Below, piece by piece: positions 8,801 to 27,968 of a stretch of DNA of 32,000 nt. The DNA is taken from positions 616,923 to 648,922 of the forward strand of contig JRWQ01000001.1 in NCBI GenBank assembly GCA_000775715.1. Reading direction: 5' to 3'. Each line of letters starts with the position of its first letter. Position 1 is the first letter of the stretch. The notes beneath the pieces were generated by a model, which saw only the letters and a program-made list of their open reading frames with translations, did no database searches and was not told the DNA's origin. A program made the position numbers and the translations under genes. Source of the DNA: Vibrio tubiashii (GTDB lineage: Bacteria; Pseudomonadota; Gammaproteobacteria; Enterobacterales; Vibrionaceae).

Positions 8801-8858
8801 GAACAAACAAACTTGCGTTATTTGTTGGAGAAATAAATCGTTCACTAAAGATAAATGC

Positions 8859-8940
8859 AAACGAAACAAAAATGTCACCTAATCGGTGAAAAATGGCTGC
8901 GAAACGAAACAAACGAACTCCGTAAGAAACTAAACGAAAC
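8859..8940 (+). promoter_or_regulatory. Array of AAACGAAAC direct repeats in the ugpB upstream region (candidate GlpR-like operator half-sites)
   Basis: AAACGAAAC at 8859-8867, 8902-8910 and 8932-8940, plus AAACGAAC at 8911-8918. A partial inverted copy (ATCGTTCA) lies near 8837-8844. All are within 100 nt of the ugpB start. Confidence 0.4.
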
Positions 8941-8959
8941 CTCAATACTAAGGAAAGGA

Positions 8960-10255: not shown

Positions 10256-10266
10256 ATTACGACCTT

Positions 10267-10298
10267 AAGCCTCACCTTTAGGGGTGGGGCTTTCTTTT
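10267..10298 (+). terminator. Intercistronic hairpin / partial terminator between ugpB and ugpA
   Basis: 10-bp stem AAGCCTCACC (10267-10276) / GGTGGGGCTT (10283-10292) with one G-U pair, loop TTTAGG, then TTTCTTTT. Confidence 0.6.
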
Positions 10299-10327
10299 AT
10301 CTCATATTTCTACTTTTTGGAGTCCAC

Positions 10328-11209: not shown

Positions 11210-11222
11210 GGGAGCTAAGACA

Positions 11223-12065
11223 ATGAAAAACAATAGAATTAGCGATCATATTATTCTTATCTTGGGTGCGGCTTTTATGCTGTTCCCTATCTGGCTTATC
11301 TTCGCCAGCTCCACTCATGATTCAGCCACCATTCTTACGGAAGGCTTACAGTGGCTGCCAGGTGATCATTTTATTGAGGTCTATGATAAGGCGTGGAACA
11401 CCGACCAAGGCTTCACTACTGACGTTACGGCTAAGACAATGATCATCAACTCTTTGATCATGGGGTTAGGGTTCGCCATCGGTAAGATAATCATATCTCT
11501 TTGCGCAGCCTATGCTTTGGTCTACTTCAGGCTGCCCTATGCCAGTGCTTGGTTCTGGCTAATCTTCGTGACCCTGCTGCTTCCTCTTGAAGTGCGCATC
11601 ATGCCTTCTTATGAAGTGGTGTCTAAGCTGGGCATGCTGAACAGCTATTCCGGTCTTATCGTACCGCTAATTGCGTCGGCAACGGCGACCTTCTTCTTTC
11701 GTCAGTTCTTTAAAACCATACCTGATGAACTGCTTGAGGCGGCACAGCTAGACAATGCAGGGCCACTGCGTTTTATCGTCGATATCTTACTACCACTTTC
11801 ACGAACCATGATGGCGGCGATTTTCATCATCATGTTTGTGGTTGGTTGGAACCAGTACTTATGGCCGATCATGATGACCACAGTCGAAAGCTACAACACC
11901 ATAGTGATGGGTATTAAGCAGATACTGGCCAACATCAACGAGACGCCAGACCCAAGATACAACTATGCCTTTGCCATGGTGATCCTCGCCATGCTGCCGC
12001 CAGTGCTGGTGGTGATTATCTTCCAACGCTGGTTCGTTAAAGGACTGGTCGAGAGCGAAAAATAG
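11223..12065 (+). CDS. ugpE: Ugp ABC transporter permease
   Basis: MalG/UgpE-type permease with EAA loop (LLEAAQLDNAGPLRFIVDILLPL). The ATG at 11223 follows an AAGGGAG RBS. The 11157 start in the ORF track overlaps the ugpA end and is unlikely. Confidence 0.85.
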   Translation: MKNNRISDHIILILGAAFMLFPIWLIFASSTHDSATILTEGLQWLPGDHFIEVYDKAWNTDQGFTTDVTAKTMIINSLIMGLGFAIGKIIISLCAAYALVYFRLPYASAWFWLIFVTLLLPLEVRIMPSYEVVSKLGMLNSYSGLIVPLIASATATFFFRQFFKTIPDELLEAAQLDNAGPLRFIVDILLPLSRTMMAAIFIIMFVVGWNQYLWPIMMTTVESYNTIVMGIKQILANINETPDPRYNYAFAMVILAMLPPVLVVIIFQRWFVKGLVESEK

Positions 12066-12085
12066 AATCTAGAGCGAATAAAACA

Positions 12086-13150
12086 ATGTTAGAAATTAAG
12101 CAATTGGTAAAAACCTACGAAAATGGCCATCAGGCAGTCAAAGGCGTCAATCTGGATACCACCAACGGTGAATTTATCGTTCTTGTTGGCCCTTCAGGCT
12201 GTGGGAAGTCTTCTATTTTGCGTTCTATCGCTGGCTTAGAGTCGATCTCAGGTGGCGAAATCTACCTCAACAACCGACGTGTTGACACTGAAAAGCCTGC
12301 GTCACGCGATATCGCGATGGTATTCCAAAACTATGCGCTCTATCCACATATGACGGTATACAACAATCTTGCTTACGGCCTAAAAAATCGTGGCGTAGAT
12401 AAGGCCGTGATTGATGAGAAAATTCAAAACGTCGCCAAGACACTCAAGATTGAAGAGTACTTAGATCGCAAACCGGCGAAACTCTCTGGAGGCCAAAGAC
12501 AGCGTGTCGCGATGGGCAGGGCGATCGTTCGTGATCCGCAGCTATTCTTGTTTGATGAGCCGCTATCAAACCTCGATGCTTCACTGCGCGCCCACATGCG
12601 CCTCAAGATCAAGAAGTTGCAGCGTGAGTTAGGCGTGACGAGTGTGTACGTTACACATGATCAAGTTGAAGCTATGACCCTAGCTGATCGCATTGTTGTA
12701 CTCAATCAGGGTCAAATAGAGCAAGTCGGCACACCGTCTGAAGTTTACCACTGGCCGGCCAGCCGCTTTGTAGCGAGTTTTATGGGCAGCCCGGCGATGA
12801 ACTTTTTGCAAGCGACGCTCCAAGATGGCGTTCTCTCCGTCGCAGGTCATGATATTCCAGTGCCTGAATATAACGGTATTAATCAGGAAGTCACTCTGGG
12901 TATCCGCCCTGAACATGCCGAGACAAAGGCGCTAGACAACGCTCTGAACTTTGTACTGAACATCAGTGTGATTGAACCGTTGGGCCCGAATCAGCTGGTG
13001 CACGGTAAGGTGGATGGGCAAGCTTTTATCGCGGTGACACCTGAAACGGAATTTGACGTAGCAGTGCCGCTGAGCCTTTATGTTGATCGCGGTAACCTCC
13101 ACCTATTTGATGCGCAGGGAAAGCGCATTGAGCCAATTAAGTTGCAATAA
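12086..13150 (+). CDS. ugpC: Ugp ABC transporter ATP-binding protein
   Basis: Walker A GPSGCGKSS, signature LSGGQRQR, Walker B LFLFDEPLS, H-loop VTHD, MalK-type C-terminal regulatory domain. Confidence 0.9.
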   Translation: MLEIKQLVKTYENGHQAVKGVNLDTTNGEFIVLVGPSGCGKSSILRSIAGLESISGGEIYLNNRRVDTEKPASRDIAMVFQNYALYPHMTVYNNLAYGLKNRGVDKAVIDEKIQNVAKTLKIEEYLDRKPAKLSGGQRQRVAMGRAIVRDPQLFLFDEPLSNLDASLRAHMRLKIKKLQRELGVTSVYVTHDQVEAMTLADRIVVLNQGQIEQVGTPSEVYHWPASRFVASFMGSPAMNFLQATLQDGVLSVAGHDIPVPEYNGINQEVTLGIRPEHAETKALDNALNFVLNISVIEPLGPNQLVHGKVDGQAFIAVTPETEFDVAVPLSLYVDRGNLHLFDAQGKRIEPIKLQ

Positions 13151-13180
13151 CAGATACCAACCCCAGATAAGGACATTACG

Positions 13181-13942
13181 GTGACTCTATCTTTAAGACA
13201 AAAAGAGATTCTTAGCTATCTACAGCGCAGCAATGGTGTTCTATCCAGTGCTCTGCTGTCAGAGACATTCAACATATCGGTTCAGACCATTCGTAAGGAT
13301 ATGAATGATTTGAGCGATAAAGGGCTTGTTCGGCGCGTACATGGCGGGATTACTCTGCCAAGTGCTAATGATAACTTATCGTTTACCAATCGAGATTTGC
13401 TGAATGTCTCAGCTAAGCAGCGCATAGCGAAAAAAGTGGCTAGCGAAATCCCAGAGGGGTGCAGTATTTTCCTCGGTATAGGGACCACACCTAAGCATGT
13501 GGCGACGGCTCTGTTGGATCACCCAGGCTTAACCGTGGTCACTAACAATATAAATGCGGCTCTTACGCTAAGTCGAAATTCTAATATTTCTACTTATCTT
13601 GCGGGGGGAGCGGTCAGAATTTCAGATGAAGATACAGTTGGTGAGGCGACGACACGCTTTTATCGCCAATTTAATATCAAGATTGGTATCTTTGGTATTG
13701 GTGGTTTAGGAGACCAGGGGGAGCTTCTGGATTTTACTCCGGAAGAGGCTAATCTCACTAGAGCCATCATTGAGCAGAGCCGCCAGTGTTGGCTGATTGC
13801 TGATAAAACCAAACCGGGCAGATACGCGCCAGTTGTCAGCGCGCAGCTTTCCGAAATGGATCGTTTGTTTGTAGATGATGCAGTACCAGAGTTTCAATCA
13901 CTATGTAGAATCAATCAGGTAGAGCTGGTTGTCGCAGATTAA
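13181..13942 (+). CDS. DeoR-family regulator, GlpR-like, embedded in the ugp operon
   Basis: 253 aa, GTG start behind a TAAGGA RBS. Colinear with E. coli GlpR as remembered (S.QTIR.D.N.L...GL..R.HGG, IGTTP..VA.ALL.H..L.VVTNN.N.A, GGLG..G.LL.F). Confidence 0.8.
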   Translation: MTLSLRQKEILSYLQRSNGVLSSALLSETFNISVQTIRKDMNDLSDKGLVRRVHGGITLPSANDNLSFTNRDLLNVSAKQRIAKKVASEIPEGCSIFLGIGTTPKHVATALLDHPGLTVVTNNINAALTLSRNSNISTYLAGGAVRISDEDTVGEATTRFYRQFNIKIGIFGIGGLGDQGELLDFTPEEANLTRAIIEQSRQCWLIADKTKPGRYAPVVSAQLSEMDRLFVDDAVPEFQSLCRINQVELVVAD

Positions 13943-13951
13943 GGAATAATA

Positions 13952-14659
13952 ATGAGACCAATAATTGTCGGTCATAGAGGGGTGTCAGGCCACTATCCTG
14001 AGAACACAAAAGCCAGTATAGAGGCGGCGATTTCTATGGGTTTGGAATGGATAGAGGTCGATGTTCAGCCGACCAAAGATCGCCAGCTTGTGATCTGCCA
14101 TGATCATACGCTTGATAGATGCAGCAATGGTGAAGGGCGTGTCGACCAACACACGCTTGAAGAGTTAAAACAGCTTGATTTCGGTTCGTGGTTCTCTTCA
14201 GACTTTGCTAGCGAAGAGATCTTAACCCTAGGTGAGTTGTTTGCCATTGTTAAGGTAAGCAACATTAAGCTCAATCTAGAGATTAAGCTCGATACTGATT
14301 GTGCGGAAGAGGTGGTTACTAGCGTTGCGCAGTTGCTGAGTGAGCATCAGATAGATGATGAATCGATAATCCTTTCAAGCTTCAATCCGCAAGTGATGAG
14401 AGCCCTCGGAGAGCAGTGCAGTGAGTACAAGCTCGGAGTCATTTGCGACGAGCTAAGCAGTGATGTTCTCGCTCTGTTTAAAACCATCAATGCCTATAGC
14501 TGCCATTTGAACTATAAGCACATTACCGAAGCAGATCTCAACCAACTTGCAGAGATAGGCTGCGCTGTATGGTGCTTTACGGTTAATGAACCCGTGAGCT
14601 TCCCGTTGCTCGATAAAGTGGATGCGATCTTTAGTGATTATCCTGAGCGGTTTTTGTAG
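13952..14659 (+). CDS. ugpQ: Cytoplasmic glycerophosphodiester phosphodiesterase
   Basis: 235 aa. GDPD motifs HRG...PENT, E.DV, HD..LDR..NG, and the C-terminal VDAIFSDYP. AAGGA RBS. Confidence 0.85.
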   Translation: MRPIIVGHRGVSGHYPENTKASIEAAISMGLEWIEVDVQPTKDRQLVICHDHTLDRCSNGEGRVDQHTLEELKQLDFGSWFSSDFASEEILTLGELFAIVKVSNIKLNLEIKLDTDCAEEVVTSVAQLLSEHQIDDESIILSSFNPQVMRALGEQCSEYKLGVICDELSSDVLALFKTINAYSCHLNYKHITEADLNQLAEIGCAVWCFTVNEPVSFPLLDKVDAIFSDYPERFL

Positions 14660-14718
14660 AAGTAGTTCACAAAATAACCACAACAAGCTTTCTAACTAGT
14701 CTTCTTATTTGCTAATTT

Positions 14719-14738
14719 ATCTTCAAAATAATGAAGAT
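14719..14738. promoter_or_regulatory. Perfect 7-bp inverted repeat ATCTTCA-N6-TGAAGAT immediately upstream of yhfZ
   Basis: ATCTTCA 14719-14725 and TGAAGAT 14732-14738. It ends 8 nt before the ATG at 14747 and covers the only RBS-like GAAG. Confidence 0.35.
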
Positions 14739-14746
14739 TTAAATTT

Positions 14747-15643
14747 ATGTCAGTTCAATACATTAGCAAAGAAGGCGCAGCGATCATGAATATCGCTCAA
14801 TACCTAATGACCACAAACGAAGGTGATCGGTTAAGAACTATCGACTCGCTCTCAGAGGAGTTTGCGGTCTCGGTAGGCTTTATTCAAAAAGCGCTAACCA
14901 CCATAGAGCAGCGTGGTGCCGTAGTGTTATCAAAACAGGGACGCAACGGTACTTTTATCAGCCAGTTAAACTATCAAGAATTGGTTGCATGCGCTGGGAT
15001 CAGCAATGTCGTTTGTGCTATGCCACTTCCCTATACTCGTCATTATGAAGGGTTGGCAAGCGGTCTAAAAGCGCAACTTGGTGGTCTTCCGCTCTACTTT
15101 GCCCATATGCGCGGTGCAAGCGTACGTGCCGAATGTTTGAGAAATGGCACCTATGATGTGGCAATTATGTCGAAGTTGGCAGCGAAAGAGTTGGCATCTG
15201 GGTTGATTACGGCCATTGATTTGGGGCCAAGGACTTATTCTCACGAACACCGTTTAATCTTTCGTCAGGGAGAGTTTGAGCAAATCAAACGTGTCGGTGT
15301 CGATCCCGATTCTCCAGACCAAAAAATCCTCACTAGTCAGGCATTTGAAGACAAGGAAATCGAAATTGTCGAAATACACTACGGTGAAAGTTTAAATCAC
15401 CTGACCAATGGTGATATTGACGCAGTCGTTTGGCTTCCAGAAGCCATTGATATGGAGAAATATGGCTTAGCAGAGCAATCGCTTAGCCACCTACCAGCGT
15501 GCCAGCAAGCATCAGAAGCTGTTATGTTGGTCAATGGCAACGAGCAGCACATTACTACCTTGCTGCGTAAATTACTGAAACTTTCACCGCTACTGATCCA
15601 TCAACAAGCGGTGGTGAAAGGTGAACTCACACCAAGCTATTAA
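14747..15643 (+). CDS. yhfZ: YhfZ-family putative regulator (GntR-like winged HTH plus periplasmic-binding-protein-like C domain)
   Basis: 298 aa vs ~301 aa for E. coli YhfZ. Shared strings as remembered: I.KEG, TID.L......SVG..Q.AL.T.E..GA......GRNG, NVVCAMPLPYTR.YEGLASGLKAQ, HMRGA..R.ECL.NG.YD.A..S.LAA, HQQ.VV.GE..PSY end. Confidence 0.75.
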   Translation: MSVQYISKEGAAIMNIAQYLMTTNEGDRLRTIDSLSEEFAVSVGFIQKALTTIEQRGAVVLSKQGRNGTFISQLNYQELVACAGISNVVCAMPLPYTRHYEGLASGLKAQLGGLPLYFAHMRGASVRAECLRNGTYDVAIMSKLAAKELASGLITAIDLGPRTYSHEHRLIFRQGEFEQIKRVGVDPDSPDQKILTSQAFEDKEIEIVEIHYGESLNHLTNGDIDAVVWLPEAIDMEKYGLAEQSLSHLPACQQASEAVMLVNGNEQHITTLLRKLLKLSPLLIHQQAVVKGELTPSY

Positions 15644-15652
15644 AGGTGACAT

Positions 15653-16024
15653 ATGGAAGAGCGACTCGAGCTGCTGCTGCAAGCCAATGTGATTAGCTCA
15701 AAAGCGCAACAAGGCTGTTTACGAGCAATTGATATCATCGATAAGCAACTGCCTGTGCGGCACGACAATGAACAGTATCAAATGGCGATCACTCATTTGG
15801 CAAGAGCGGCGGATCGTATTTGGCAAAATGAAGCCGTAGTAGAGGGATTGGACCAAGACATTCTCGATGAGATTTCTGCTGATGAATGTTATTCCGACAC
15901 ACTCGCACTACATCAAGATGTATTGGGTGCGATGCAGCTTCACACTGTACCGAGTAGTGAGGAGGGGTTTATGCTAGCCAATATCTATTCATTGATTCAG
16001 ACCTCTCTTGAGGAGACAAAATGA
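15653..16024 (+). CDS. yhfY: YhfY-like small PRD-domain-like protein
   Basis: 123 aa, all-helical composition. MAITHLARAADRI resembles the His-containing helix of PRD domains. The position after yhfZ matches the E. coli cluster. The stop overlaps the php start (ATGA). Confidence 0.6.
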   Translation: MEERLELLLQANVISSKAQQGCLRAIDIIDKQLPVRHDNEQYQMAITHLARAADRIWQNEAVVEGLDQDILDEISADECYSDTLALHQDVLGAMQLHTVPSSEEGFMLANIYSLIQTSLEETK

Positions 16025-16899
16025 TGATTGATGCTACGGGTTATACCTACTGCCATGAGCACTTGCACATCGACTTATCACCACAAAAACACACTCTTGA
16101 TTGTCGATTGGATCAATACCAGCTGCTGTGTGAAGAGATGCGTGACGTTCAAAAACGTGGAGTACGTAACATCGTAGAAGTGACCAACTCTTTTATGGGA
16201 AGAAATCCTCAATTTATTGAAAATTTAATTAATGACACCGGTATCAACGTCTTGCTCTCTACTGGTTTCTATATTGAAGGATTCTTTCCCGCTGGTTTGT
16301 ACGACGCAAGTGTCGAGCAAATTGCCCAAGGAATGATCAATGAGATAGAAGTTGGTATTGATGGCTCTTGCTTAAAAGCAAGCGTGATTGGTGAAATTGG
16401 CAGTAGCGAAGATCAGTTTAGTCCAACCGAGCAAAAAGTCTTTCAAGCCGCAGCAATCGCCCATCTTGAAACGGGTCGTCCAATCTCAACTCACCAATCA
16501 ATGAGCACGATGGGCAGACAACAAATTGAACTACTAAAACAGTGCGGCGTTGAAATGGAAAACGTCACCATTGGGCACTGTGACCTGCGCGATAACTTTG
16601 AGCACATTGTTTGGATGCTCGATCAAGGCTGCTATGTGCAGTTCGACACCATTGGCAAAAACAGTTACTACCCAGACGAAAAACGTGCAGCCTCCCTCGC
16701 CGAGCTATGCCGACGTGGCTACGAAAAACAGATCATGCTCTCGATGGACATTACCCGTCGATCGCACTTGAAAGCCAACGGTGGCCTAGGTTTTAGCTAC
16801 CTAATTGACAAATTTGTGCCCTTGCTTAAACACCATGGGGTTAGTGATCACCAAATAAGCACCCTACTAAAAACCAACCCTGCTCGCTTATTTGGCTAG
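16021..16899 (+). CDS. php: Phosphotriesterase homology protein (amidohydrolase superfamily, binuclear metal centre)
   Basis: 292 aa, the same length as E. coli Php and colinear with it (TGYT..HEHLHIDLS, CRLDQY, RGVRN..E.TN..MGRN.QF, GRPISTH, GHCDL.DN, YVQFDTIGKNSYYPDEKR, MLSMDITRRSHLKANGG). All expected metal ligands appear present (HxH, E in GEIGSSE, H in STHQS, H in GHCD, D in SMDIT). Confidence 0.9.
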   Translation: MMIDATGYTYCHEHLHIDLSPQKHTLDCRLDQYQLLCEEMRDVQKRGVRNIVEVTNSFMGRNPQFIENLINDTGINVLLSTGFYIEGFFPAGLYDASVEQIAQGMINEIEVGIDGSCLKASVIGEIGSSEDQFSPTEQKVFQAAAIAHLETGRPISTHQSMSTMGRQQIELLKQCGVEMENVTIGHCDLRDNFEHIVWMLDQGCYVQFDTIGKNSYYPDEKRAASLAELCRRGYEKQIMLSMDITRRSHLKANGGLGFSYLIDKFVPLLKHHGVSDHQISTLLKTNPARLFG

Positions 16900-16933
16900 A
16901 GAGCGTCCGCGCTCAAAAATATAAGGATAGAAC

Positions 16934-17293
16934 ATGAAAAAAATCGCGATTGCTGGTTTGCAGCGTGAGCAAATCAAACAGCAAATTGAGACAACCATGC
17001 CTGACACCTTTGAGTGCCATATCCTCACCGATATGGATGCGGCGATGAAGGTTAAGTCAGGAGAAATTGACTACTTTATTGGCTGTTGCAATACCGGTGC
17101 TGGTGGCGCATTAGCTATGGCTATTGCCATTATTGGCTTTGGTCAAAGTTGCACTATTGCAAAGCCTTCAATTCAAGCAAAGCAAGATGAGGTTCAGCAG
17201 TTTATAGATAAAGGTTGTGTCGCGTTTGGTTTATCGATTGAACATGTCGAGCATGCCGTTCCGATGCTAACAAAACTACTCGCAGAGAAGTAA
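16934..17293 (+). CDS. yhfU: YhfU-like protein (DUF2620)
   Basis: 119 aa (E. coli YhfU ~117 aa). MKKIAIAG start and a conserved-looking GCCNTGAGGALAMA loop. Sits between php and yhfT as in E. coli. AAGGA RBS. Confidence 0.65.
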   Translation: MKKIAIAGLQREQIKQQIETTMPDTFECHILTDMDAAMKVKSGEIDYFIGCCNTGAGGALAMAIAIIGFGQSCTIAKPSIQAKQDEVQQFIDKGCVAFGLSIEHVEHAVPMLTKLLAEK

Positions 17294-17303
17294 GGAGTCC
17301 ATC

Positions 17304-18605
17304 ATGGATATTATGCACATTGGATTGGTTGCTGCACTCTGCGCCATGACCGCATTGATTGCCAACATGAGTGCCGCCGTCTTCCATGACGGCATCCGCC
17401 CTGTCTTGCCACAATTATTCGAAGGTAATATGACTCGCCGAGATGCGGGGTCTGTTGCGTTCGGTCTTTCTATTGGTTTCGTTGCTTCAGTGGGTATTTC
17501 ATTTACCTTATCGACTGGGCTACTTAACCCTTGGTTACTCTTTTTACCTACCGATATTCTTGGGGTTATGATTGGTAGCCGCATACTTGCGGCGCTCGCT
17601 GGTGGGTTATGGGGAGTGTTAGTTGTAACTTCTTTAGCCGGTGTGAATGCTGTTTTAACTGGCCTACCGATTGATGCTCTTGGCGCGCTTGGTGAACTCG
17701 GTACACCGGTAATGTCAGCCTTTGCACTCTTCCCTCTATTGGCCATTTTCTATCAGTTTGGCTGGAAAGCAGGGGCAATTGCAGCCGGTGTGATTTTGCT
17801 TTCTCGCTTAATGATCATCAAGTTCACAGGCATCTACCCAGAATCCATTCAAATCTTTGTCGGTATGCTAATGCTGGTTTTCTTTGCGGTTCGTAAAGAC
17901 TTAGCGGATCGTAAAGCAGGTATGCAGGCTCCAGATATGTCTGGCCTACACAGCATTTTCGAAGAACGAACCAAGCGTATTGTTAAACACTTACCTTTCT
18001 TGGCTGTGACAGGAGCACTGATTGCGGCGGTCTCCAACGGGGGTATTTTTGCCGGTTCCGAAGTTTCAATCTATTCACTTGCTGATGCACTAAAAATTGC
18101 TGATCCTGAAGCTCAAGATGCGGCCATGAAGCAAGTGGCGCTATCTGAGTTTATGCGTGGCTTAGGTTTTATTCCACTGATTGCTACTACAGCGCTCGCA
18201 ACCGGTGTTTATGGCGTGGTGGGCATGACCTTCGTGTTTGTCGTTGGCTATCTATCCCCCAATATGGCAGTCGCAGCAGCATTAGGTGCCGTCACTATTT
18301 GCCTAGAAGTTTATTTATTGCGTGGCATTGGCCGTTTCTTAGAACAGTTCCCTTCAATTCGGAACGCTTCAGACAATATTCGCAACTCAATGAACACGCT
18401 AATGGAGTTCGCACTTCTTATCGGTGGTGTTCTCGCTGTGATGAAAATGGGTTCCACCACAGGATTTACTATCTTTGCGATGTTGTTCTACCTCAACGAA
18501 GTTATGGGTCGCCCAGTATTGAAGATTGCAGCTCCAGCCGTAGCCGCCATTCTCACTGGTGTCATCTTAAACCTTCTTCACGTGGTTGGACTGTTCGCCA
18601 TCTAA
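17304..18605 (+). CDS. yhfT: YhfT-like polytopic inner-membrane protein (putative transporter)
   Basis: 433 aa (E. coli YhfT ~434 aa), highly hydrophobic and Gly/Ala-rich with roughly 10-12 predicted helices. AAGGAG RBS. Confidence 0.7.
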   Translation: MDIMHIGLVAALCAMTALIANMSAAVFHDGIRPVLPQLFEGNMTRRDAGSVAFGLSIGFVASVGISFTLSTGLLNPWLLFLPTDILGVMIGSRILAALAGGLWGVLVVTSLAGVNAVLTGLPIDALGALGELGTPVMSAFALFPLLAIFYQFGWKAGAIAAGVILLSRLMIIKFTGIYPESIQIFVGMLMLVFFAVRKDLADRKAGMQAPDMSGLHSIFEERTKRIVKHLPFLAVTGALIAAVSNGGIFAGSEVSIYSLADALKIADPEAQDAAMKQVALSEFMRGLGFIPLIATTALATGVYGVVGMTFVFVVGYLSPNMAVAAALGAVTICLEVYLLRGIGRFLEQFPSIRNASDNIRNSMNTLMEFALLIGGVLAVMKMGSTTGFTIFAMLFYLNEVMGRPVLKIAAPAVAAILTGVILNLLHVVGLFAI

Positions 18606-18726
18606 AAATAAATAGCCGAGCTGATCACTGGCTTAAATTACTCAATTAGATCAATTGGTATCGTTATTTAACCAGCGCTACAGAGATGTTAGTGCCGGAT
18701 CAGCTCATTCCTAAAAAGGGGAGAAA

Positions 18727-19908
18727 ATGTTTTTAAAAGCCTTAGAAAAGCAAAATCCCGACTTAGTACAAGCCGCGTTAAGCTTATTTAATCAAGGTTT
18801 ATTGATGCCGGATACAACCGTCATTGATGTAGACCAGTTTATTAACAACGCCCAAAATATACGCCAACAGGCAGATAGATATGGACTGAAATTATTTGCC
18901 ATGACCAAGCAAGTAGGTCGTAATCCTTTACTCGCTAAAATCCTAATCGAGCAATGTCAATTTGATGGAATTGTCTGTGTCGACTTTAAAGAGGCGCGAT
19001 TAATGGCAAAGTATGGGTTGCCAGTTGCGAATGTAGGTCATTTAGTCCAGCCTCCCACTAATATGATTGACAGCCTGATTAGAGAAATTCAGCCTCAGGT
19101 GATTACGGTTTACAGTCTCGATAAAGCCAAACAGATCTCAAATGCTGCACAGAAGTATCAGCGTCAACAAGGCCTGCTGCTGAAGTTCTATCACGAGCGC
19201 GATCAACTTTATACGAACCAAGAATCTGGTTTTCCAATCGAAGAGCTGGATGAGATTGTCGCAGAAATTGCAGCGATGCCAAACGTGCATATTGAGGGCG
19301 TCACCCATTTCCCTTGTTTTCTATATGATAAAAAAAGTCACAAAACCCAGCCTACGGCAAACTTAACTACCCTTATTGAGGCAAAGCAGAGGTTAGAGCA
19401 ACTGGGCGTGGAGTGCCGTCAAGTCAATGCGCCTTCAGCAACTTGTATTGAAACCTTACCGATACTAGCAGAGTTTGGTTGTACGCATGGTGAGCCTGGG
19501 CACGCATTGACTGGCACAGTGCCTGCCAATGCCACCACTATCCAAAGCGAAAAAATCGCGATGCTATACCTTAGTGAGGTGTCTCACCATTATGGTTCAG
19601 ACAGTTACTGCTTTGCTGGTGGTTACTATCGTAGGGGGAGTCTAGAGAACTGTTTGGTATTCGATAACGACAAGCGCTATCTCACCTGTATCTACAATGA
19701 TGATCGCGATAGCATCGATTATCATCTGCGTATATCTGGATTGTTTCCTATCGGCTCACCAGTAATCATGGCGTATCGCACTCAAGTCTTTGTCACCAGA
19801 AGTGATGTTGCTTTAGTCTCCGGAATTAGCAGTGGCAAGCCACATCTTATGGCCGTTTATGACGCATTGGGAAATCCACTTAACACCAGTGAGGTGCATC
19901 ATGGCTAG
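18727..19908 (+). CDS. yhfX: YhfX-like fold-type III PLP enzyme (alanine-racemase N-terminal domain family)
   Basis: 393 aa (E. coli YhfX ~387 aa). The N-terminal barrel segment has a candidate PLP lysine in LFAMTKQVGRNP. GGGGAG RBS. The 3' end overlaps the yhfW start by 8 nt. Confidence 0.7.
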   Translation: MFLKALEKQNPDLVQAALSLFNQGLLMPDTTVIDVDQFINNAQNIRQQADRYGLKLFAMTKQVGRNPLLAKILIEQCQFDGIVCVDFKEARLMAKYGLPVANVGHLVQPPTNMIDSLIREIQPQVITVYSLDKAKQISNAAQKYQRQQGLLLKFYHERDQLYTNQESGFPIEELDEIVAEIAAMPNVHIEGVTHFPCFLYDKKSHKTQPTANLTTLIEAKQRLEQLGVECRQVNAPSATCIETLPILAEFGCTHGEPGHALTGTVPANATTIQSEKIAMLYLSEVSHHYGSDSYCFAGGYYRRGSLENCLVFDNDKRYLTCIYNDDRDSIDYHLRISGLFPIGSPVIMAYRTQVFVTRSDVALVSGISSGKPHLMAVYDALGNPLNTSEVHHG

Positions 19909-21145
19909 ATTTATTGTCGTGGTTCTTGATGGCTTTGGCGTAGGTGAAATGCCGGATGTGCCTCAAGTGAGACCACAAGACTGTGGTGCAAACACTGCCA
20001 ACAAATTGCTGTCTCACTTTGCTCTCAAACGACTACCCACTCTGGAAAAATTGGGGCTACAGAATGTGGTCGGTAACTCTGAGTCACTGATGAAGCCCAA
20101 CCCAGATGCCAATACAGGTTCAGCTTGGCTTGCTCATGAAGGTGGAGACACGTTTATGGGACACCAAGAAATCATGGGCACAAAGCCAAAGCCACCATTA
20201 GTTCAACCCTTTCAACAAGCGCTGGCAAAGATTGAGTCAGCAGTGATCGAGACAGGTTATCACGTTGAAAGAATTACCCAGCAAGGGTTGTCATTGCTGC
20301 AAATTGAACACGGAGTCATTGTCGGCGATAACTTAGAGGCAGATTTAGGACAAGTCTATAACTTAACATGCAATTTCAATGTAGTGCCGTTTGAAAAACT
20401 GCTTGAGATTGCCAGTGTCGTGCGGGCCAATAACCCAGTAAGTCGCAATATCGCTTTTGGTGGCAATATTGAGTCAGAGAACGGCATACCTAGTATGCAA
20501 CGCGTCTATAACGCTATTGAAGTAAAAAACGACCACCAAGGGCAACCCACTTATATTGGTATCAACGCACCAGATAGCGGCGCGTATGAGTGTGGTTTTC
20601 AAGTGGCTCACTTAGGCTTCGGTGTGGATGCACTGACTCAGGCACCTTATCTGCTCCATCAACAAGGTATTAAAACCTGGTTATATGGCAAAGTCGCAGA
20701 CATCGTGCAAAATCCTAATGGTCAATCCTACTTGTCGGTTGTGGATACCGATGCAGTATTTCGCTTGCTAACCCAAGATTTAGCCACGCAAACGCAAGGG
20801 TTCTTCTGCGCCAATGTACAAGAAACGGACCTTTCTGGGCACCAGCAAGATCCCAAACAGTATTGGCGTGTTCTTGAACGAGCAGATAGAGGGTTGAGCC
20901 AAGTGATCGAAAAAATGGCCGAGCAAGACGTGCTCATCGTTATGGCTGATCATGGTAATGATCCGTTTATTGGCCACACCAAACATACAAGGGAGAAAGT
21001 ACCACTCCTGGCGATGAAAAAAGGTCGTCAAGCCCTCGCTCTCGGTGAGCGTGAAACATTGTCAGATGTAGGAGCGACGGTCTGCAACTTTTTTGCCGCA
21101 CAGGCACCAGAAAACGGATCACCTATTACCAGTTTGTTAAACTAG
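19901..21145 (+). CDS. yhfW: YhfW-like phosphomutase (phosphopentomutase/alkaline-phosphatase superfamily)
   Basis: Start taken at ATG 19901 (MARFIVVVLDGFGVGEMPD, GTGAGG RBS) rather than 19832. Metal and nucleophile motifs resemble DeoB: VLDGFG.G, GGDTFMGHQEIMG, ETDLSGHQQD, MADHGNDP..GHT.HTREKVPLL. Confidence 0.75.
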   Translation: MARFIVVVLDGFGVGEMPDVPQVRPQDCGANTANKLLSHFALKRLPTLEKLGLQNVVGNSESLMKPNPDANTGSAWLAHEGGDTFMGHQEIMGTKPKPPLVQPFQQALAKIESAVIETGYHVERITQQGLSLLQIEHGVIVGDNLEADLGQVYNLTCNFNVVPFEKLLEIASVVRANNPVSRNIAFGGNIESENGIPSMQRVYNAIEVKNDHQGQPTYIGINAPDSGAYECGFQVAHLGFGVDALTQAPYLLHQQGIKTWLYGKVADIVQNPNGQSYLSVVDTDAVFRLLTQDLATQTQGFFCANVQETDLSGHQQDPKQYWRVLERADRGLSQVIEKMAEQDVLIVMADHGNDPFIGHTKHTREKVPLLAMKKGRQALALGERETLSDVGATVCNFFAAQAPENGSPITSLLN

Positions 21146-21200
21146 TTTTAAGCCTAAACAGAGTTAATTCAAGATATTATGATTCTTGTTTAGTTGTTAT

Positions 21201-21240
21201 AGCCTCCTAGTCTCCCCCCTGCGCTAAGAGGCTTTTCTTT
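21201..21240 (+). terminator. Probable rho-independent terminator of the yhf cluster
   Basis: AGCCTCCTAG (21201-21210) pairs with CTAAGAGGCT (21224-21233) at 9 of 10 positions, 13-nt loop, followed by TTTCTTT. Confidence 0.5.
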
Positions 21241-21308
21241 ACGCTGCGCTATCGCGACTCGATAAAGTCGATGCAATCTTTAATGATTATCTATAACGGT
21301 TTGCATAA
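21241..21308 (+). pseudogene. Remnant of a glycerophosphodiester phosphodiesterase (ugpQ-like) 3' end
   Basis: 21258-21308 aligns without gaps to the ugpQ 3' end at 14609-14659 with 40/51 identities (31/34 over the first 34 nt). It translates in frame as LDKVDAIFNDYL* against LDKVDAIFSDYPERFL*. There is no upstream ORF, because a TAA lies in frame at 21225-21227. Confidence 0.7.
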
Positions 21309-21410
21309 GGTAAAAGCGATAGAGTTGCTCTTCTTAGCTATCAACCGAGTAACACTGAAAGCAAAAGTGTTATAAATCAGTCGGCAATTGAGGAGGAAGG
21401 GCTAAAGACA

Positions 21411-21935
21411 TTAGTCCTGATTTAAAGCTTGTAGCTGGCTATTGTTATTGTTCGATTGATACAAGCGATATATGGTCAGTAAGTTGGTGATGATAAAGGT
21501 ACTCTCGACCAATGAACCCCCGATCGACCCAAGCCAAATATTGTGGCTCACCCAACAAAAAGAATTGAACAGAATTAAGCTGCGAAGTGTGATACCTCGT
21601 TTGGAAAAGAGTGCCCAAGTGGCGACGGACGATCCTATCACCGTGAGGAGCTCAAAAAAGTGAGTGATGTTTGGTAGGGTCATTAGCCACATTAGCGCAA
21701 TGAAGAACCACATCACTTTGCGTGATTGGGTTTTGATTGAGGCGAAGCTGCGAATGCCATTAATGATCACGCCAATGGCAGCGACGGTTGCACCCATTAG
21801 GGTAAAGTGAATCCCCATGATGAAACAAAACGCCATCATCTGATAGCGAAAGCGCATATCATCTTTCTGCCAGAATGCCATCACGCCAACCATAAACGCG
21901 ATGCCACCAACGCCTTGTGCTAACCAGTTTTCCAT
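21411..21935 (-). CDS. ygjV: YgjV-like inner membrane protein
   Basis: 174 aa with about 5-6 TM segments. The N-terminus WLAQGVG.IAF..G...F...D.R.F..Q resembles E. coli YgjV, which also neighbours hexuronate genes (uxaCA). Confidence 0.55.
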   Translation of the reverse strand: MENWLAQGVGGIAFMVGVMAFWQKDDMRFRYQMMAFCFIMGIHFTLMGATVAAIGVIINGIRSFASIKTQSRKVMWFFIALMWLMTLPNITHFFELLTVIGSSVATWALFSKRGITLRSLILFNSFCWVSHNIWLGSIGGSLVESTFIITNLLTIYRLYQSNNNNSQLQALNQD

Positions 21936-21982
21936 TTTTCCCCTAGAGTGTTGTTTTTTGAGCCAAGCTTTGAACGAATCAA

Positions 21983-22000
21983 CCCTCCATATAGGGAGGG
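21983..22000 (-). terminator. Possible terminator of the kdgK-eda transcript
   Basis: On the minus strand, CCCTCC-CTATAT-GGAGGG followed by TTGATTCGTT, 63 nt after the eda stop. The stem is short and the U-tract imperfect. Confidence 0.35.
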
Positions 22001-22062
22001 CTGGGCACCATATCTAATTCGCTAAGGGATTACCCAAGAGCCTTGAGGCTACTTACGAATCA

Positions 22063-22692
22063 TTACTCATTTACAAGCGCTACTGCTTCGCGAGTTAGGC
22101 GTGCAAGCTCTTCCCAGTTGCCTGCTTCGATAAGTTTCTTGTCTACCATCCACGTACCACCACATGCCAATACACGCGGGATAGCTAGATAATCTTTGAT
22201 GTTCGCAGGGTTAATGCCACCAGTAGGCATTAGTTCGATGTTAGTGTATGGCGCGAGCAGAGATTTCACCATGTTGATGCCGCCAGAAGCTTCGGCGGGG
22301 AAGAACTTCAAGGTGGTTAATCCCATTTCCAGTGCGGCTTCAACTGTGCTTGGGTTGTTTACACCCGGTACGATATCAATTCCGATCGCTTGGCACGCTT
22401 TAACGGTATTTGGGTTAAAGCCAGGCGAAACGATAAAGGTTGCGCCTGCTTCTTTTGCTGCAAGTGCTTGCTCGCGGTTCAACACCGTTCCTGCGCCAAT
22501 CAGCATGTCTGGTTGGCTTTCACGCAGTAGACGAATCGCTTCTACAGCGGCTGCGGAACGGAAGGTGATCTCAGCCGCTGGGAGTCCGTTTTCTGCCAGT
22601 ACTTTACCCAGTGGGACAATGTCTTCTGCTTTATCTATGGCGATAACAGGGATGACTTTCAGAGCTTTCAATTGTTCTTTAATACTAGACAT
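22063..22692 (-). CDS. eda: 2-dehydro-3-deoxy-6-phosphogluconate (KDPG) / KHG aldolase
   Basis: 209 aa. PV....... E.....LV.GG......EIT.R, GAGTV, F.VSPG, and the Schiff-base region LKFFPAE..GG typical of Eda. AAGGAA RBS. Confidence 0.9.
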   Translation of the reverse strand: MSSIKEQLKALKVIPVIAIDKAEDIVPLGKVLAENGLPAAEITFRSAAAVEAIRLLRESQPDMLIGAGTVLNREQALAAKEAGATFIVSPGFNPNTVKACQAIGIDIVPGVNNPSTVEAALEMGLTTLKFFPAEASGGINMVKSLLAPYTNIELMPTGGINPANIKDYLAIPRVLACGGTWMVDKKLIEAGNWEELARLTREAVALVNE

Positions 22693-22701
22693 GAGTGTTC
22701 C

Positions 22702-23679
22702 TTAAACGACGTCAAGCGCCGGTTGTGTGAATGCTTTGGGAATGATGGCACCGCGATGTTGAATCACAGCACCTGCCAGTGCGTTACCTCTTTGACATGA
22801 GGTCGCGAGATCGGCGCCAGCAAGGTATGCCGATAAAAAGCCACCATTGAATGAGTCGCCCGCCGATGTGGTATCCACCACTTGAGCGACAGGTTGGGTT
22901 GGCACGGCTTGTGGAGCCAAAGCCGCGCTCGAATCCTGATTTGTTGAGTTTTGAACTAAGCAGCCATCTGAACCAAGTTTGACGATGCATTTGCCCACGC
23001 CAAGAGAGGTAAGGCGTTCAATGGTTTGCTCTGGAGTTTCGTCGCCCCAGATCAATTGCTCATCATCAAAAGTCACCAAGGCGACGTCCGTCAGTTGATA
23101 AATGGCTTGGTAAACGTTTTTGACGGTTTGATTATCGTCTTGAGGCCATAACGCTGGGCGGAAGTTACTATCAAATGCGATTTCAACGCCTTGGGCTTTA
23201 AGCTCGACCAATAGGTTGAGCAGTGAAATTCGGTCTTCTTCTGGCAAGATGGCTAGAGAGATACCGCTGAGAAACACCGCATCCACATGAGTTAATGCTT
23301 GCTTAACCAGACCAAAGTTAGGGTGTTGAAGTAAGTGACGTGCTGCTGATTGATTGCGCCAATATAGAAACGTACGCTCGCCTTGATCATCAAGCTGAAT
23401 CAAGTACAAGCCCGGCGTGCGAGTTTCATCGCGTAGCACCAAATCTGTTGAGACGCCTTCGTCTTCCCAGCGAGTTAGCATGCCCGAGCTGATTGGGTCA
23501 TTGCCAAGCGCCGTAACGTAAGAGACTTTAACTTCATCAGGTTTGCTATTGGCTTCGCAGCCGCGGCTCAAATAAACCGCAGCGTTGAGCGTATCCCCAC
23601 CAAATGTTTGATGCATTGAGCCGAACGGTTTTCCATTTAGCTCAATCATACATTCACCAATAATGGCGATGTGCTTCAT
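22702..23679 (-). CDS. kdgK: 2-dehydro-3-deoxygluconokinase (PfkB/ribokinase family)
   Basis: 325 aa. GGDTLN near the N-terminus and the C-terminal DTTSAGDSFNGGF PfkB signature. Located between uxaC and eda. Confidence 0.85.
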   Translation of the reverse strand: MKHIAIIGECMIELNGKPFGSMHQTFGGDTLNAAVYLSRGCEANSKPDEVKVSYVTALGNDPISSGMLTRWEDEGVSTDLVLRDETRTPGLYLIQLDDQGERTFLYWRNQSAARHLLQHPNFGLVKQALTHVDAVFLSGISLAILPEEDRISLLNLLVELKAQGVEIAFDSNFRPALWPQDDNQTVKNVYQAIYQLTDVALVTFDDEQLIWGDETPEQTIERLTSLGVGKCIVKLGSDGCLVQNSTNQDSSAALAPQAVPTQPVAQVVDTTSAGDSFNGGFLSAYLAGADLATSCQRGNALAGAVIQHRGAIIPKAFTQPALDVV

Positions 23680-23682
23680 TGG

Positions 23683-25095
23683 TTACGCCCTCTCTTCAAA
23701 GTAGCGTTTTGCGTTACCAAAACAGATGTCTTCAACCATAGGACCAAGCAACGATAGGTCATTTGGAATTTCGCCGTTCTCTGCCCAACGACCGACCATG
23801 TCACACAAGATGCGGCGGAAGTATTCGTGACGGGTGTAAGACAAGAAGCTGCGCGAGTCCGTTAGCATACCGACGAATTGGCTGAGCAAACCAAGTTGAG
23901 AAAGTTGCTCCATTTGGCGTTGCATGCCGTCTTTCTGGTCGTTGAACCACCAACCTGAACCAAACTGCACTTTGCCCGCGATACCGCCACCTTGGAAGTT
24001 TCCAATCATGGTCGCCATCATTTCGTTATCACGAGGGTTCAAACAGTAAAGAATGGTGCGAGGCAGTTCGTTGGTTTGGTCCATTTCATCCAACAGGTGT
24101 GCCAGTTCAAAGGCAAATGGGCGATCGCCAATCGAGTCAAAGCCAGCATCGGCACCTAACAGTTGGAACATGCGTGTGCTGTTGTTGCGCTGCGCGCCAA
24201 TATGAAGCTGCATGACCCAGCCCAATTTCGCGTAGCGTTTGCCGAGCCAAACTTGAACTGCGGTAGAGAACTGCGCACATTCAAGATCTGACAATACTTC
24301 GCCATTCAAACGACGGGTCAGCAACGCATCTAAATCAGCCTCGCTTGGGATCGGTGCGTAACGGACGATCTCAATGCCGTGGTCTGCTGCACGACATCCA
24401 TGTGCATCGAAGTGTGCCAAACGTTTATCAAGCGCACTCAATAAATCATCAAAGCGGCGAATTTCAATGTCTGCTATTTCACCCAATTTGTGGATGTAAT
24501 CCGCAAACACGTCCAATTCAATCTTGAACGCTTTATCCGGACGCCAGCTCGGCAGCACTTTAACGTTAAATGTGTCGTCTTCTGCGATCGCTTTGTGGTG
24601 CTCTAGTGAATCGATAGGATCATCGGTTGTGCCCGCCATGACGACGTTCATTTGCTGCATGATGCCACGAGCCGTAAATTCAGGTGTCGCCAGTAGCTCA
24701 TTACATTGATGCCAAATTTGGTCAGCGGTGTCTGGGCTAAACAGCGTATTGGTAAGGCCGAATGGGCGACGCAGTTCTAAGTGCGTCCAGTGGTAAAGCG
24801 GGTTGCCCAAGGTTTGAGGAACCGTCTTCGCCCACGCCATGTATTTGTCGTAATCGCTCGCGTCACCCGTAATCAAATTCTCTTCAATGCCTGCCGAGCG
24901 CATGCCACGCCATTTGTAGTGATCGCCTTCAAGCCAGATTTGACTCAAGTTATCGAACTGACGATTTTGCGCCACTTCCGCTGGGTTTAGATGGCAGTGG
25001 TAATCATAAATTGGCTGGTGGAACGCATGCTCATGGTACAAGCGACATGCAGTTTCGTTTGAGAGTAAAAAGTCTTCACACAAGAAATTCTTCAT
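23683..25095 (-). CDS. uxaC: Glucuronate (uronate) isomerase
   Basis: 470 aa, the same length as E. coli UxaC. F..EDFLL....A..LYH......PI.DYHCHL start and the WWFND region. AGGAG RBS. Confidence 0.92.
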
Positions 25096-25107
25096 CGTTA
25101 ACTCCTA

Positions 25108-26571: not shown

Positions 26572-26652
26572 TTTGGTATCCCTTTTCCCGCAAGCGTACC
26601 TGCGGGATGGTCTGTTTTAATCATTCGTAATCTAGAGCTTATAACCTAGCGT

Positions 26653-27954: not shown

Positions 27955-27968
27955 TTTGGAACCCTCTA

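Follow-up and report, generated by a model that had tools for sequence, protein, structure and literature searches.

The closest described relative of the locus analyzed here is the yhf cluster of Escherichia coli K-12, which is annotated in the order yhfZ-yhfY-yhfX-yhfW-php-yhfU-yhfT-yhfS. Crystal structures exist for Php (1BF6 and 4LEF), YhfX (4KBX) and the C-terminal domain of YhfZ (2OZZ); for YhfY, YhfU and YhfT, no PDB structure was found by sequence search. In the recent literature, yhfW was called only a "mutase" in 2023 and was still among the "uncharacterized" genes, as a "putative mutase", in January 2026, and YhfZ was called a "putative transcription factor" in 2025. A riboswitch paper names the operon as a map label only. 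Searches of 8 million full texts found no functional study of the yhf genes, DUF2620 or related families, and the statement of a preliminary description that no function has been established for the cluster therefore stands. The present analysis concerns such a cluster in a 32,000-nucleotide stretch of Vibrio tubiashii DNA (contig JRWQ01000001.1); the whole stretch is called the window below, and positions are window coordinates. The cluster occupies positions 14747-21145. Its gene order is the one that is standard in Vibrionaceae, and it adds one more member to a known but functionally orphan type of cluster; the window itself adds little that is new.

Re-reading of the sequence confirmed seven open reading frames (ORFs) in the same direction, yhfZ-yhfY-php-yhfU-yhfT-yhfX-yhfW, with intergenic gaps of 9, -4, 34, 10, 121 and -8 nt. 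The one-to-one match to the E. coli genes, which had been proposed earlier, was borne out by BLASTP: all seven products were full-length, co-linear orthologues with 36-65% identity (47.5, 36, 57, 65, 61, 52 and 49% in the window order; the E. coli cluster is survey locus L001). A distant DNA search recovered the E. coli php-yhfU-yhfT region in 5076 of 5426 complete genomes. The rearranged order and the absence of yhfS were likewise upheld by BLASTP and by tblastn, which did not find yhfS in the 32-kb window, and they proved to be the standard form in Vibrionaceae and Aeromonas. Pfam and NCBIfam profiles placed six of the seven ORFs in the families expected (HTH_41/YhfZ_C, PTE, DUF2620, YhfT, Ala_racemase_N and Metalloenzyme), and the second ORF, yhfY, had no match at default thresholds. 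The start of yhfW was assigned to the ATG at 19901; the longer ORF from a GTG at 19832 had no counterpart in E. coli. Downstream of yhfT, a spacer separates the php-yhfU-yhfT module from the yhfX-yhfW module; the two modules are arranged differently in Enterobacteriaceae. No promoter or terminator above chance, no Rfam match at E<=1 and no operator copy were detected in this spacer. Within the cluster, the promoter consensus count was below the shuffled expectation and the terminator count was within one standard deviation, and an Rfam E-value scan of positions 14000-22000 revealed no RNA element. The seven genes are best explained as a single catabolic operon that is the Vibrio counterpart of the yhf cluster in E. 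coli.

The regulator of this operon and its candidate binding site were studied. YhfZ matched HTH_41 (3.4e-19), YhfZ_C (2e-76) and the NCBIfam model YhfZ_full (359 bits, cut-off 260), and its C-terminal domain matched PDB 2OZZ (6e-64). Alignment of the Vibrionaceae DNA upstream of yhfZ revealed the palindrome ATCTTCAAAATAATGAAGAT, which ends 8 nt (14739-14746) before the yhfZ ATG and was the sole zero-mismatch operator match in the window. Its core, (C/A)TTCA-N6-TGAAG, was present with at most one mismatch within -200 to +90 of 59 of the 80 yhfZ genes, the expectation being 0.04 per region. The core was located at about -24 in Vibrionaceae and usually at -47 in Enterobacteriaceae, often with a second copy 24 bp downstream (-23), and the same tandem pair was found in the distant cluster L082/L083. 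In two Enterovibrio loci that lack yhfZ (L011 and L015), the motif was located approximately 200 nt upstream of yhfU. YhfZ thus has what is expected of a GntR-type repressor: a helix-turn-helix with an effector domain, and a palindrome conserved at the yhfZ promoter. This is good evidence that the palindrome is likely the YhfZ box, to which YhfZ is predicted to bind.

Inexact copies of the operator were also present in the window. A copy with two mismatches, ATCCTCAATTTATTGAAAAT, was found inside php at positions 16205-16224, and there were eight matches with at most three mismatches (1.9 expected), all of which except the exact site lay within coding regions; the inexact copies look like chance. 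A conserved TCACA approximately 60 nt upstream of yhfZ was considered as a CRP site and rejected, the left half-site being non-canonical (2 of 5 positions at N6 spacing).

To define the core of the system, gene neighbourhoods were surveyed in 81 loci and the window and in 17 further loci (designated L and a number; single letters below denote yhf genes). The order Z-Y-php-U-T-X-W was common to about 30 Vibrionaceae species and Aeromonas. Fusobacteriaceae had this Vibrio order, and Sebaldella had it with S inserted before X-W. The E. coli order was found without S in Serratia, Rouxiella and Ewingella and without W in most Yersinia. yhfS was present in 25 of the 82 loci. The modules Z-(Y)-php-U-T, php-U-T and U-T-X-W also stood alone. 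In Enterovibrio coralii (L011/L054) and E. qingdaonensis (L015/L034), the system lay on two separate contigs, and its two U-T pairs had diverged from each other: one was in U-T-X-W (YhfT 87% identical to that of the window) and the other in Z-Y-php-U-T (YhfT 60-64%). A second copy, Z-php-U-T, occurred in Photobacterium, and Serratia proteamaculans (L044:6335-12210) carried a lone php-U-T that was preceded by the gene for an IclR-type regulator and followed by one for a PAP2 phosphatase. A contig labelled Pseudomonas lundensis (L049) had a layout nearly identical to the latter and may be mislabelled or contaminated.

Throughout these arrangements, yhfU and yhfT were adjacent in all 82 gammaproteobacterial and fusobacterial sources and in most or nearly all of the distant lineages. 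In the first 82 loci php-U-T also appeared to be an invariant trio; this was ruled out by the distant clusters L082, L084, L087 and L095, from which Php was absent. Two of these, L082/L083 (Z-Y-X-W-U-T) and L084 (Z-Y-U-T-X-W), were reached via weak DUF2620 matches. The constant element is the YhfU-YhfT pair, usually accompanied by YhfX, YhfW and YhfY, and the "minimal core of seven genes" of the preliminary description is not supported, because Php, YhfW and YhfS may each be missing. The view of YhfU as a subunit specific to YhfT only was weakened by L094, in which U-php precedes an ABC transporter (a YhfT gene is still adjacent). No kinase gene was found in any of the approximately 100 clusters examined. 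Because the cluster encodes neither a kinase nor a terminal aldolase, its description as a "self-contained" device is doubtful. In a Sebaldella metagenome-assembled genome (MAG), an extra gene for a 343-aa protein was located between yhfT and yhfS (L052:11347-12378); its product had a weak Amidase match (E 9e-6, below the cut-off).

The two proteins of the constant pair were then compared with known folds. YhfU matched DUF2620 (2e-46), a small family with 160 clusters at E<=1e-3 among 1.84 billion representatives. When its AlphaFold2 model (pLDDT 96.5) was searched against the PDB, 19 of the top 20 Foldseek matches were RpiB or LacAB (TM 0.61-0.75, probability 1.0), and the next fold class was receiver domains (TM <0.52). 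The model therefore suggests an RpiB-like fold for YhfU. Pfam LacAB_rpiB gave 13.0 bits (cut-off 24.7) over residues 35-61 only, that is, over the Cys motif, and hhalign aligned G-x-C52-N-T54-G-A-G of YhfU with C66-G-T68-G-x-G of the RpiB sequence. The functional residues of RpiB are Asp9/His10, Cys66 and Thr68, and its phosphate-binding arginines lie at the C-terminal end. In a set of 86 diverse DUF2620 representatives, the Cys was present in 79 of 82 and the Thr, or Ser, in 80 of 82. At the positions of Asp9/His10, YhfU reads L-Q-R, and the C-terminal 30 residues are absent. YhfT matched its own Pfam family (1.8e-154), and its AlphaFold2 model (pLDDT 86) contained 16 DSSP helical segments; no PDB relative was found by sequence or by fold (best Foldseek E 0.11, TM <=0.2). 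Even at E<=10, YhfU and YhfT matched only their own Pfam families. The possibility that YhfU is a Lac/Cel-type Enzyme IIB (EIIB) of the phosphoenolpyruvate (PEP)-dependent phosphotransferase system (PTS) was rejected (hhalign probability 0.4%), as was that of YhfT being a Lac/Cel-type EIIC (0.6%, with no EIIC structure among the Foldseek matches). Three database proteins appeared to be chimeras (P0344, Php-YhfU; P0373, YhfU-YhfT; P0431, YhfU-Php). Their junctions look like read-through, frameshift or misassembly, and they were not used as evidence of fusion.

YhfY was present in 77 of the 82 loci. The window protein reached Pfam PRD only at E=0.014 (16.1 bits, cut-off 23), and E. coli YhfY was likewise below the threshold. 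The cut-off was passed by YhfY of Sebaldella (44.2 bits) and Fusobacteriaceae (31.9 bits) and by the fusion protein P0425 (28.2 bits). The earlier description of YhfY as PRD-like is supported by orthologues, which reached PRD at 2.5e-11 and 1.7e-7. Among the 77 orthologues, H48, A52, R55 and N110 were invariant; H48, within T-H-L-A-x-A-x-x-R, was the sole invariant His, while a canonical PRD has two phosphorylatable His.

Distant clusters with a high G+C content provided a link between these proteins and the PTS. The 10-kb contig L087 (64% G+C) encodes, in this order, YhfT, a short-chain dehydrogenase, a 317-aa shikimate-dehydrogenase-like protein and a divergent GntR/UTRA regulator, followed by P0425, YhfW, YhfX, HPr, Enzyme I and a KDPG/KHG aldolase (KDPG, 2-keto-3-deoxy-6-phosphogluconate). 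P0425 is a two-domain protein in which DUF2620 (E 5e-27) is followed by PRD (28 bits, cut-off 23). In L095/L096 (76% G+C), the order is X-W-HPr-U-T with 4-nt overlaps. The His15 motif was kept in the HPr copies of both lineages, L087 and L095/L096. In L092/L093, U is directly followed by a gene for a PRD protein and then by W and X, a UTRA regulator occupies the place of YhfZ, and YhfT and PTE genes are nearby. YhfY stays beside YhfU where a GntR/UTRA regulator replaces YhfZ (L087, L092/L093); therefore, its partner would be YhfU rather than YhfZ. Presumably, HPr and Enzyme I were recruited into the cluster where the host lacks suitable general PTS proteins. The aldolase gene of L087 places an Eda-type aldolase at the end of at least one version of the pathway. 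A 317-322-aa protein encoded beside the GntR/UTRA regulator (L087:2058-3011 and L092:2751-3719) was 46% identical between the two high-GC lineages and had only weak matches to shikimate/saccharopine-dehydrogenase-type Rossmann proteins; it may perform an oxidising step that makes a lactone.

The three enzymes of the cluster were found to have intact catalytic motifs, as the preliminary description had held, and these motifs were conserved among orthologues. Php matched Pfam PTE (4e-95, 319 bits), PDB 4LEF and 1BF6 (1e-112) and NCBIfam PRK09875 (451 bits, just below the cut-off of 486). Its metal ligands H12, H14, E125, H158, H186 and D243 were at least 97% conserved in 80 orthologues. By phmmer, Php was about equally far from lactonases (SsoPox, 1e-36; Lmo2620/3PNZ, 1.7e-32) and from animal PTER (9EFA, 8e-26), and it gave 102 bits with the phospho-furanose lactonase model NF045706 of NCBIfam, well under the cut-off of 630. 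PTER, the animal homologue of Php, hydrolyses the anionic substrate N-acetyltaurine, and its E169 is a metal-contact residue (PMC11374699). Therefore, a lactonase is not the sole option for Php.

YhfX matched Ala_racemase_N (4e-22; 79 bits, cut-off 24), YhfX-like_C (2e-33) and PDB 4KBX (1.7e-128). The Schiff-base Lys K61 (MTKQ) was at least 97% conserved, and a His/Cys-rich set (H194, C197, H254, H259 and H287) was invariant in 76 orthologues. By these features, YhfX is a fold-type III pyridoxal phosphate (PLP) enzyme of the alanine-racemase-like kind, for which a racemase, aldolase or deaminase reaction is conceivable. YhfW matched Metalloenzyme and NCBIfam PRK12383 (557 bits, cut-off 254) and was below the cut-offs of the canonical DeoB models TIGR01696 (132 vs 341 bits) and PRK05362 (158 vs 256). 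In 69 orthologues, D83, H88, D310, H314, D350, H351, H359 and H362 were invariant, D10 was present in 68 (the other having a gap), and position 84 was Thr in 66 and Ser in 3. When YhfW was aligned with the B. cereus phosphopentomutase 3M8W, only the core, with the metal ligands and the GDT nucleophile, was aligned, and the cap (approximately 110-260) was not. Because of this core-only alignment and the failed DeoB models, YhfW would be a phosphomutase or phosphotransferase with a different substrate.

The state of the cluster was also considered. That it is a cryptic or decaying remnant in this Vibrio might be supposed from the lack of a phenotype for the E. coli yhf genes in the literature searched and from the frequency of partial copies and losses, such as that of W in Yersinia and the split or truncated forms in Enterovibrio and Photobacterium sp. 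JCM 19050. However, all seven ORFs are intact and of full length, and conservation of the catalytic residues and of the operator extends across families and phyla. Moreover, YhfT and YhfU share 95-96% identity with their counterparts in related Vibrio species, while the neighbouring genes are more diverged (YhfT is 96% identical to the proteins of Vibrio rhodolitus, V. ponticus and V. scophthalmi). Decay is thus very improbable.

From gene context and folds, a model can be proposed in which a phosphate relay from HPr via YhfY to YhfU is coupled to uptake through YhfT and is followed by catabolism through Php, YhfW and YhfX; we put its probability at somewhat less than even. YhfZ would bind the palindrome at 14719-14738 and be released when its C-terminal domain binds an inducer, possibly an anionic one. 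The substrate would enter via YhfT, and its uptake would be coupled to the PTS phosphorelay with no kinase involved: phosphorylated HPr would phosphorylate YhfY at His48, YhfY would pass the phosphate to Cys52 in the glycine-rich loop of YhfU, and YhfU would phosphorylate the substrate at, or just after, YhfT. Such a relay would follow the His-to-His-to-Cys-to-sugar logic of the PTS, starting from PEP, with different protein folds. Subsequently, Php would open a lactone or remove an acyl group from an anionic intermediate, YhfW would shift the phosphate to the position needed by the next enzyme, and YhfX would eliminate or deaminate at the amino carbon to give a 2-keto-3-deoxy-phospho-acid, which a KDPG-type aldolase encoded elsewhere would cleave. 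The dehydrogenases of the high-GC clusters would make the lactone from the free amino sugar, which would make Php a lactonase and account for its being dispensable elsewhere. The more specific proposal, that YhfY, YhfU and YhfT form a new PTS-like family with EIIA, EIIB and EIIC roles that feeds a phosphomutase/PLP route for oxidised amino sugars, in E. coli K-12 as well, is rather doubtful. Given the negative Lac/Cel EIIB and EIIC profile tests, a correct relay model would make yhf a system of a new kind, outside the known PTS families.

Several points weigh against the relay model. Phosphotransfer from Enzyme I and HPr to a protein of the cluster or to the substrate is proposed from gene context; HPr occurs in the cluster in two metagenomic lineages only, and Enzyme I in one. 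YhfU resembles the isomerase RpiB and no known EIIB: as in RpiB, the Cys comes after strand 3, and the Cys-x-Thr dyad of YhfU corresponds to the RpiB catalytic pair. YhfU and YhfT have no profile similarity to Lac/Cel EIIB and EIIC. We know of no precedent for a PRD that acts as a phosphocarrier, and in the window yhfY adjoins yhfZ, which fits a purely regulatory role equally well. The role of YhfW in the pathway is a guess.

The same observations can be accommodated by a more conventional design, in which YhfT is a secondary transporter, YhfU a cytosolic RpiB-like aldose-ketose isomerase of a sugar phosphate and YhfY solely a regulatory PRD that reports the status of HPr to the operon for catabolite control. 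In this design, YhfW would shift the phosphate from position 1 to position 5 or 6, as DeoB and RpiB do for pentoses, and a housekeeping kinase would perform the first phosphorylation. It is in keeping with the RpiB/LacAB identity of 19 of the 20 top structural matches of YhfU, with the conserved Cys-x-Thr dyad and with the retention of every DeoB catalytic residue in YhfW, since YhfW followed by YhfU would copy the DeoB-to-Rpi route. The loss of yhfW in most Yersinia would be expected if the housekeeping DeoB substitutes for it. Furthermore, yhfY adjoins yhfZ in 77 loci, and PRDs are known regulatory domains (PMC4987338). On the other hand, the Pfam LacAB_rpiB score of YhfU was 13 bits against a cut-off of 24.7, the counterparts of Asp9/His10 of RpiB are replaced in YhfU, and the 30 C-terminal residues with the phosphate-binding Arg are gone. 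The conventional design also leaves unexplained the inseparability of U and T while all the other genes move, the adjoining or fusion of Y to U where YhfZ is replaced, the dedicated HPr and Enzyme I genes inside two clusters and the php-U-T modules without W. It is the main rival of the relay model and a serious possibility, put at clearly less than an even chance.

Some genes that adjoin the cluster in other loci give hints of the substrate. A secreted protein of approximately 731 aa was encoded beside the cluster in 10 loci and in three arrangements (Photobacterium, Thaumasiovibrio, Aeromonas sobria and one Enterobacter). It has a conserved N-terminal domain with F-E-S-G ... G-Y-Q-x-G-E-A motifs, RTX-like repeats and a C-terminal chitin-binding CBM5/12; in single-sequence and profile searches against Pfam, NCBIfam and the PDB, nothing beyond this module and the repeats was recognised. 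In 13 loci, one of them from a Fusobacteriaceae MAG, a Lac/Cel-type PTS EIIC gene adjoined the cluster, in several arrangements; EIIB and EIIA genes were also present in 7 or 8 of these loci and a DUF7916 gene in 7. A porin-like gene accompanied this PTS block in V. ezurae and V. halioticoli, and a lone EIIC gene followed yhfW in several Photobacterium and in the Fusobacteriaceae MAG (L035:8993-9985). The CBM5/12 and PTS neighbours fit a substrate derived from chitin or another polysaccharide.

Two characterised systems act on comparable compounds. In the ong route of Pseudoalteromonas, the amidohydrolase OngB and the fold-type III PLP deaminase OngC convert N-acetylglucosaminate (GlcNAc1A) via glucosaminate (GlcN1A) to 2-keto-3-deoxygluconate (KDG), which is the substrate of KdgK (PMC9537276). 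D-Glucosaminate is utilised in Salmonella via dgaABCDEF, a PTS-based and PRD-controlled operon (PMC4987338). By analogy, the substrate class is most likely a 2-amino-2-deoxy-aldonate or its lactone or N-acyl form, i.e., an oxidised amino sugar. The phosphorylated amino compound or amino-sugar-acid derivative of the preliminary description fits these findings and has the standing of a conjecture. Two facts sit poorly with this assignment. The window has neither a chitin-binding protein nor Lac/Cel PTS genes near the cluster. E. coli K-12, which carries yhf, reportedly does not grow on D-glucosaminate, so that this particular compound is an unlikely substrate.

It could further be supposed that the cluster is a second route, beside ong, for oxidised chitin or N-acyl amino-aldonates, in which Php deacetylates or delactonises, YhfX deaminates to KDG or KDPG, and kdgK and eda finish the pathway. 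This would agree with the OngB/OngC precedent (PMC9537276) and the N-acetyl hydrolase activity of PTER (PMC11374699). The CBM5/12 protein, the porin-like gene, the Lac/Cel (chitobiose-type) PTS and DUF7916 lie beside clusters in at least three arrangements, in Photobacterium, Thaumasiovibrio, Aeromonas, Vibrio ezurae, V. halioticoli and one Enterobacter. In addition, eda and kdgK are located 1-2.5 kb downstream of the cluster in the window (eda at approximately 1 kb), and an Eda gene is inside L087. Were the yhf product KDG or KDPG, these two window genes would provide the final reactions, yet they are clearly part of a hexuronate cluster encoded on the opposite strand. Moreover, no chitin-related gene adjoins the cluster in the window, the 731-aa protein has no recognised catalytic domain, and gut Enterobacteriaceae and Fusobacteria carry the cluster without an obvious chitin niche. 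The ong scheme has no role for YhfW and YhfU, and deacetylases are no nearer to Php than lactonases are. Such a route is therefore considered unlikely.

The coordinates of the features are given in the table. The genes that flank the cluster belong to unrelated, ordinary operons. A 156-aa antisense ORF at positions 17276-17746 (-) lies across the yhfU/yhfT junction. The apparent conservation of its counterpart in 34 loci only mirrors the highly conserved 5' region of yhfT, and the ORF is most likely not a gene.

Table. Features of the yhf cluster, its flanks in the window and neighbours of related clusters in other loci.
Feature	Position	Strand	Description
yhfZ	14747..15643	+	HTH_41 (GntR-like) DNA-binding domain and YhfZ_C periplasmic-binding-protein-like sensor domain
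yhfY	15653..16024	+	123-aa single-PRD protein; one invariant His, H48
php	16021..16899	+	phosphotriesterase-family (amidohydrolase) binuclear-metal hydrolase, Glu-bridged type
yhfU	16934..17293	+	DUF2620; predicted RpiB/LacAB fold; signature G-x-C52-x-T54-G-x-G
yhfT	17304..18605	+	433-aa polytopic membrane protein, Pfam YhfT; presumed permease
yhfT-yhfX spacer	18606..18726	.	121 nt, no recognisable signal
yhfX	18727..19908	+	fold-type III PLP enzyme; Ala_racemase_N and YhfX-like_C; Schiff-base Lys K61
yhfW	19901..21145	+	DeoB-like phosphomutase, alkaline-phosphatase superfamily; 8-nt overlap with yhfX
candidate YhfZ operator	14719..14738	.	perfect 7+7 palindrome ATCTTCAAAATAATGAAGAT (ATCTTCA-N6-TGAAGAT)
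upstream neighbour	618-3041		PFL-like glycyl-radical enzyme
upstream neighbour	4897-8748		CdaR-type regulator, GntP permease, glycerate kinase
upstream neighbour	8855-14659		ugp-like ABC transporter, DeoR regulator, glycerophosphodiesterase
downstream neighbour	21411-30665		ygjV, eda, kdgK, uxaC, mannitol-dehydrogenase-family gene, TRAP transporter (these on the other strand), GntR/FCD regulator
~731-aa CBM5/12 protein	L022:13941-16136	+	also in L016, L019-L021, L023, L028 and L031
~731-aa CBM5/12 protein	L009:3106-5298	-	
~731-aa CBM5/12 protein	L067:2830-4647	-	
EIIB-EIIC-EIIA and DUF7916 block	L026:3127-7217	+	DUF7916 protein of 296 aa
EIIB-EIIC-EIIA and DUF7916 block	L033:4258-7153	-	
EIIB-EIIC-EIIA and DUF7916 block	L009:66-2994	-	
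EIIB-EIIC-EIIA and DUF7916 block	L020:16442-19343	+	
EIIB-EIIC-EIIA and DUF7916 block	L086:6504-8502	-	

The yhf genes are one of the larger blocks of the E. coli "y-ome" without an assigned function, despite crystal structures of three proteins, and the window shows that marine Vibrionaceae have kept this block conserved and intact. The value of the comparison lies in the points that go beyond the preliminary description: the operator just upstream of its start coordinate, the predicted RpiB fold of DUF2620, which partners an unclassified permease, the revised core and a connection to the PTS phosphorelay that can be tested. If the relay model were true, it would define a new PTS family and a new use for the PRD and for the RpiB fold. 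If it were false, the RpiB superfamily would still gain a new branch in YhfU, and the fold of YhfT would still be new among transporters.

Compared with the yhf cluster of E. coli K-12, the window has seven full-length orthologues and the same operator core before yhfZ. The differences are the position of X-W after php-U-T and not before it, the lack of yhfS and a single operator at about -24 instead of one at -47, often with another at -23. The yhf clusters resemble PTS and dga operons in having a PRD protein, a small Cys-bearing alpha/beta protein beside a permease, no kinase and enzymes suited to phosphorylated substrates; HPr is found inside two yhf-related clusters and Enzyme I in one. 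Unlike the canonical PTS (Enzyme I-HPr-EIIA-EIIB-EIIC), yhf has no EIIA, EIIB or EIIC family domains, and its PRD is a stand-alone protein of 123 aa rather than part of an antiterminator or activator. Similar parts presumably occur in the EF_0829-EF_0839-type cluster of Enterococcus and Aeromonas, which, according to TIGRFAMs descriptions, encodes a stand-alone PRD, a glycine-rich Cys protein ("SFCGS") of approximately 120 aa, DUF4310/4311/4312 membrane proteins, an amidohydrolase, a PLP enzyme and an aldolase. No sequence link from it to YhfU or YhfT was found (own Pfam families only at E<=10), and no relevant paper was found in a full-text search.

With RpiB/LacAB, YhfU shares the predicted fold and the signature GE-x-D-x-x-I-x-x-C-x-T-G-x-G, including the catalytic Cys and Thr. 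It differs from them in being 30 residues shorter, in the replacement of the Asp/His after strand 1, in never occurring apart from a YhfT-type protein and in being fused to a PRD in one lineage. Php shares with the Lmo2620 (3PNZ) lactonase and PTER a TIM-barrel binuclear-metal hydrolase in which a Glu and not a carboxylated Lys bridges the metals, and the substrates of both relatives carry phosphate or sulfonate; in PTER, the bridging residue is presumably E169. The ong pathway and yhf have in common an amidohydrolase-superfamily hydrolase and a fold-type III PLP enzyme, and a shared KDG/KDPG end point is suggested by the Eda gene in L087. In contrast to ong, yhf has a PTE instead of a D-aminoacylase, a YhfX-like_C instead of a D-Ser-dehydratase C-domain and YhfT instead of an SSS transporter; it has no kinase, whereas ong has KdgK, and it adds YhfW, YhfU and YhfY.

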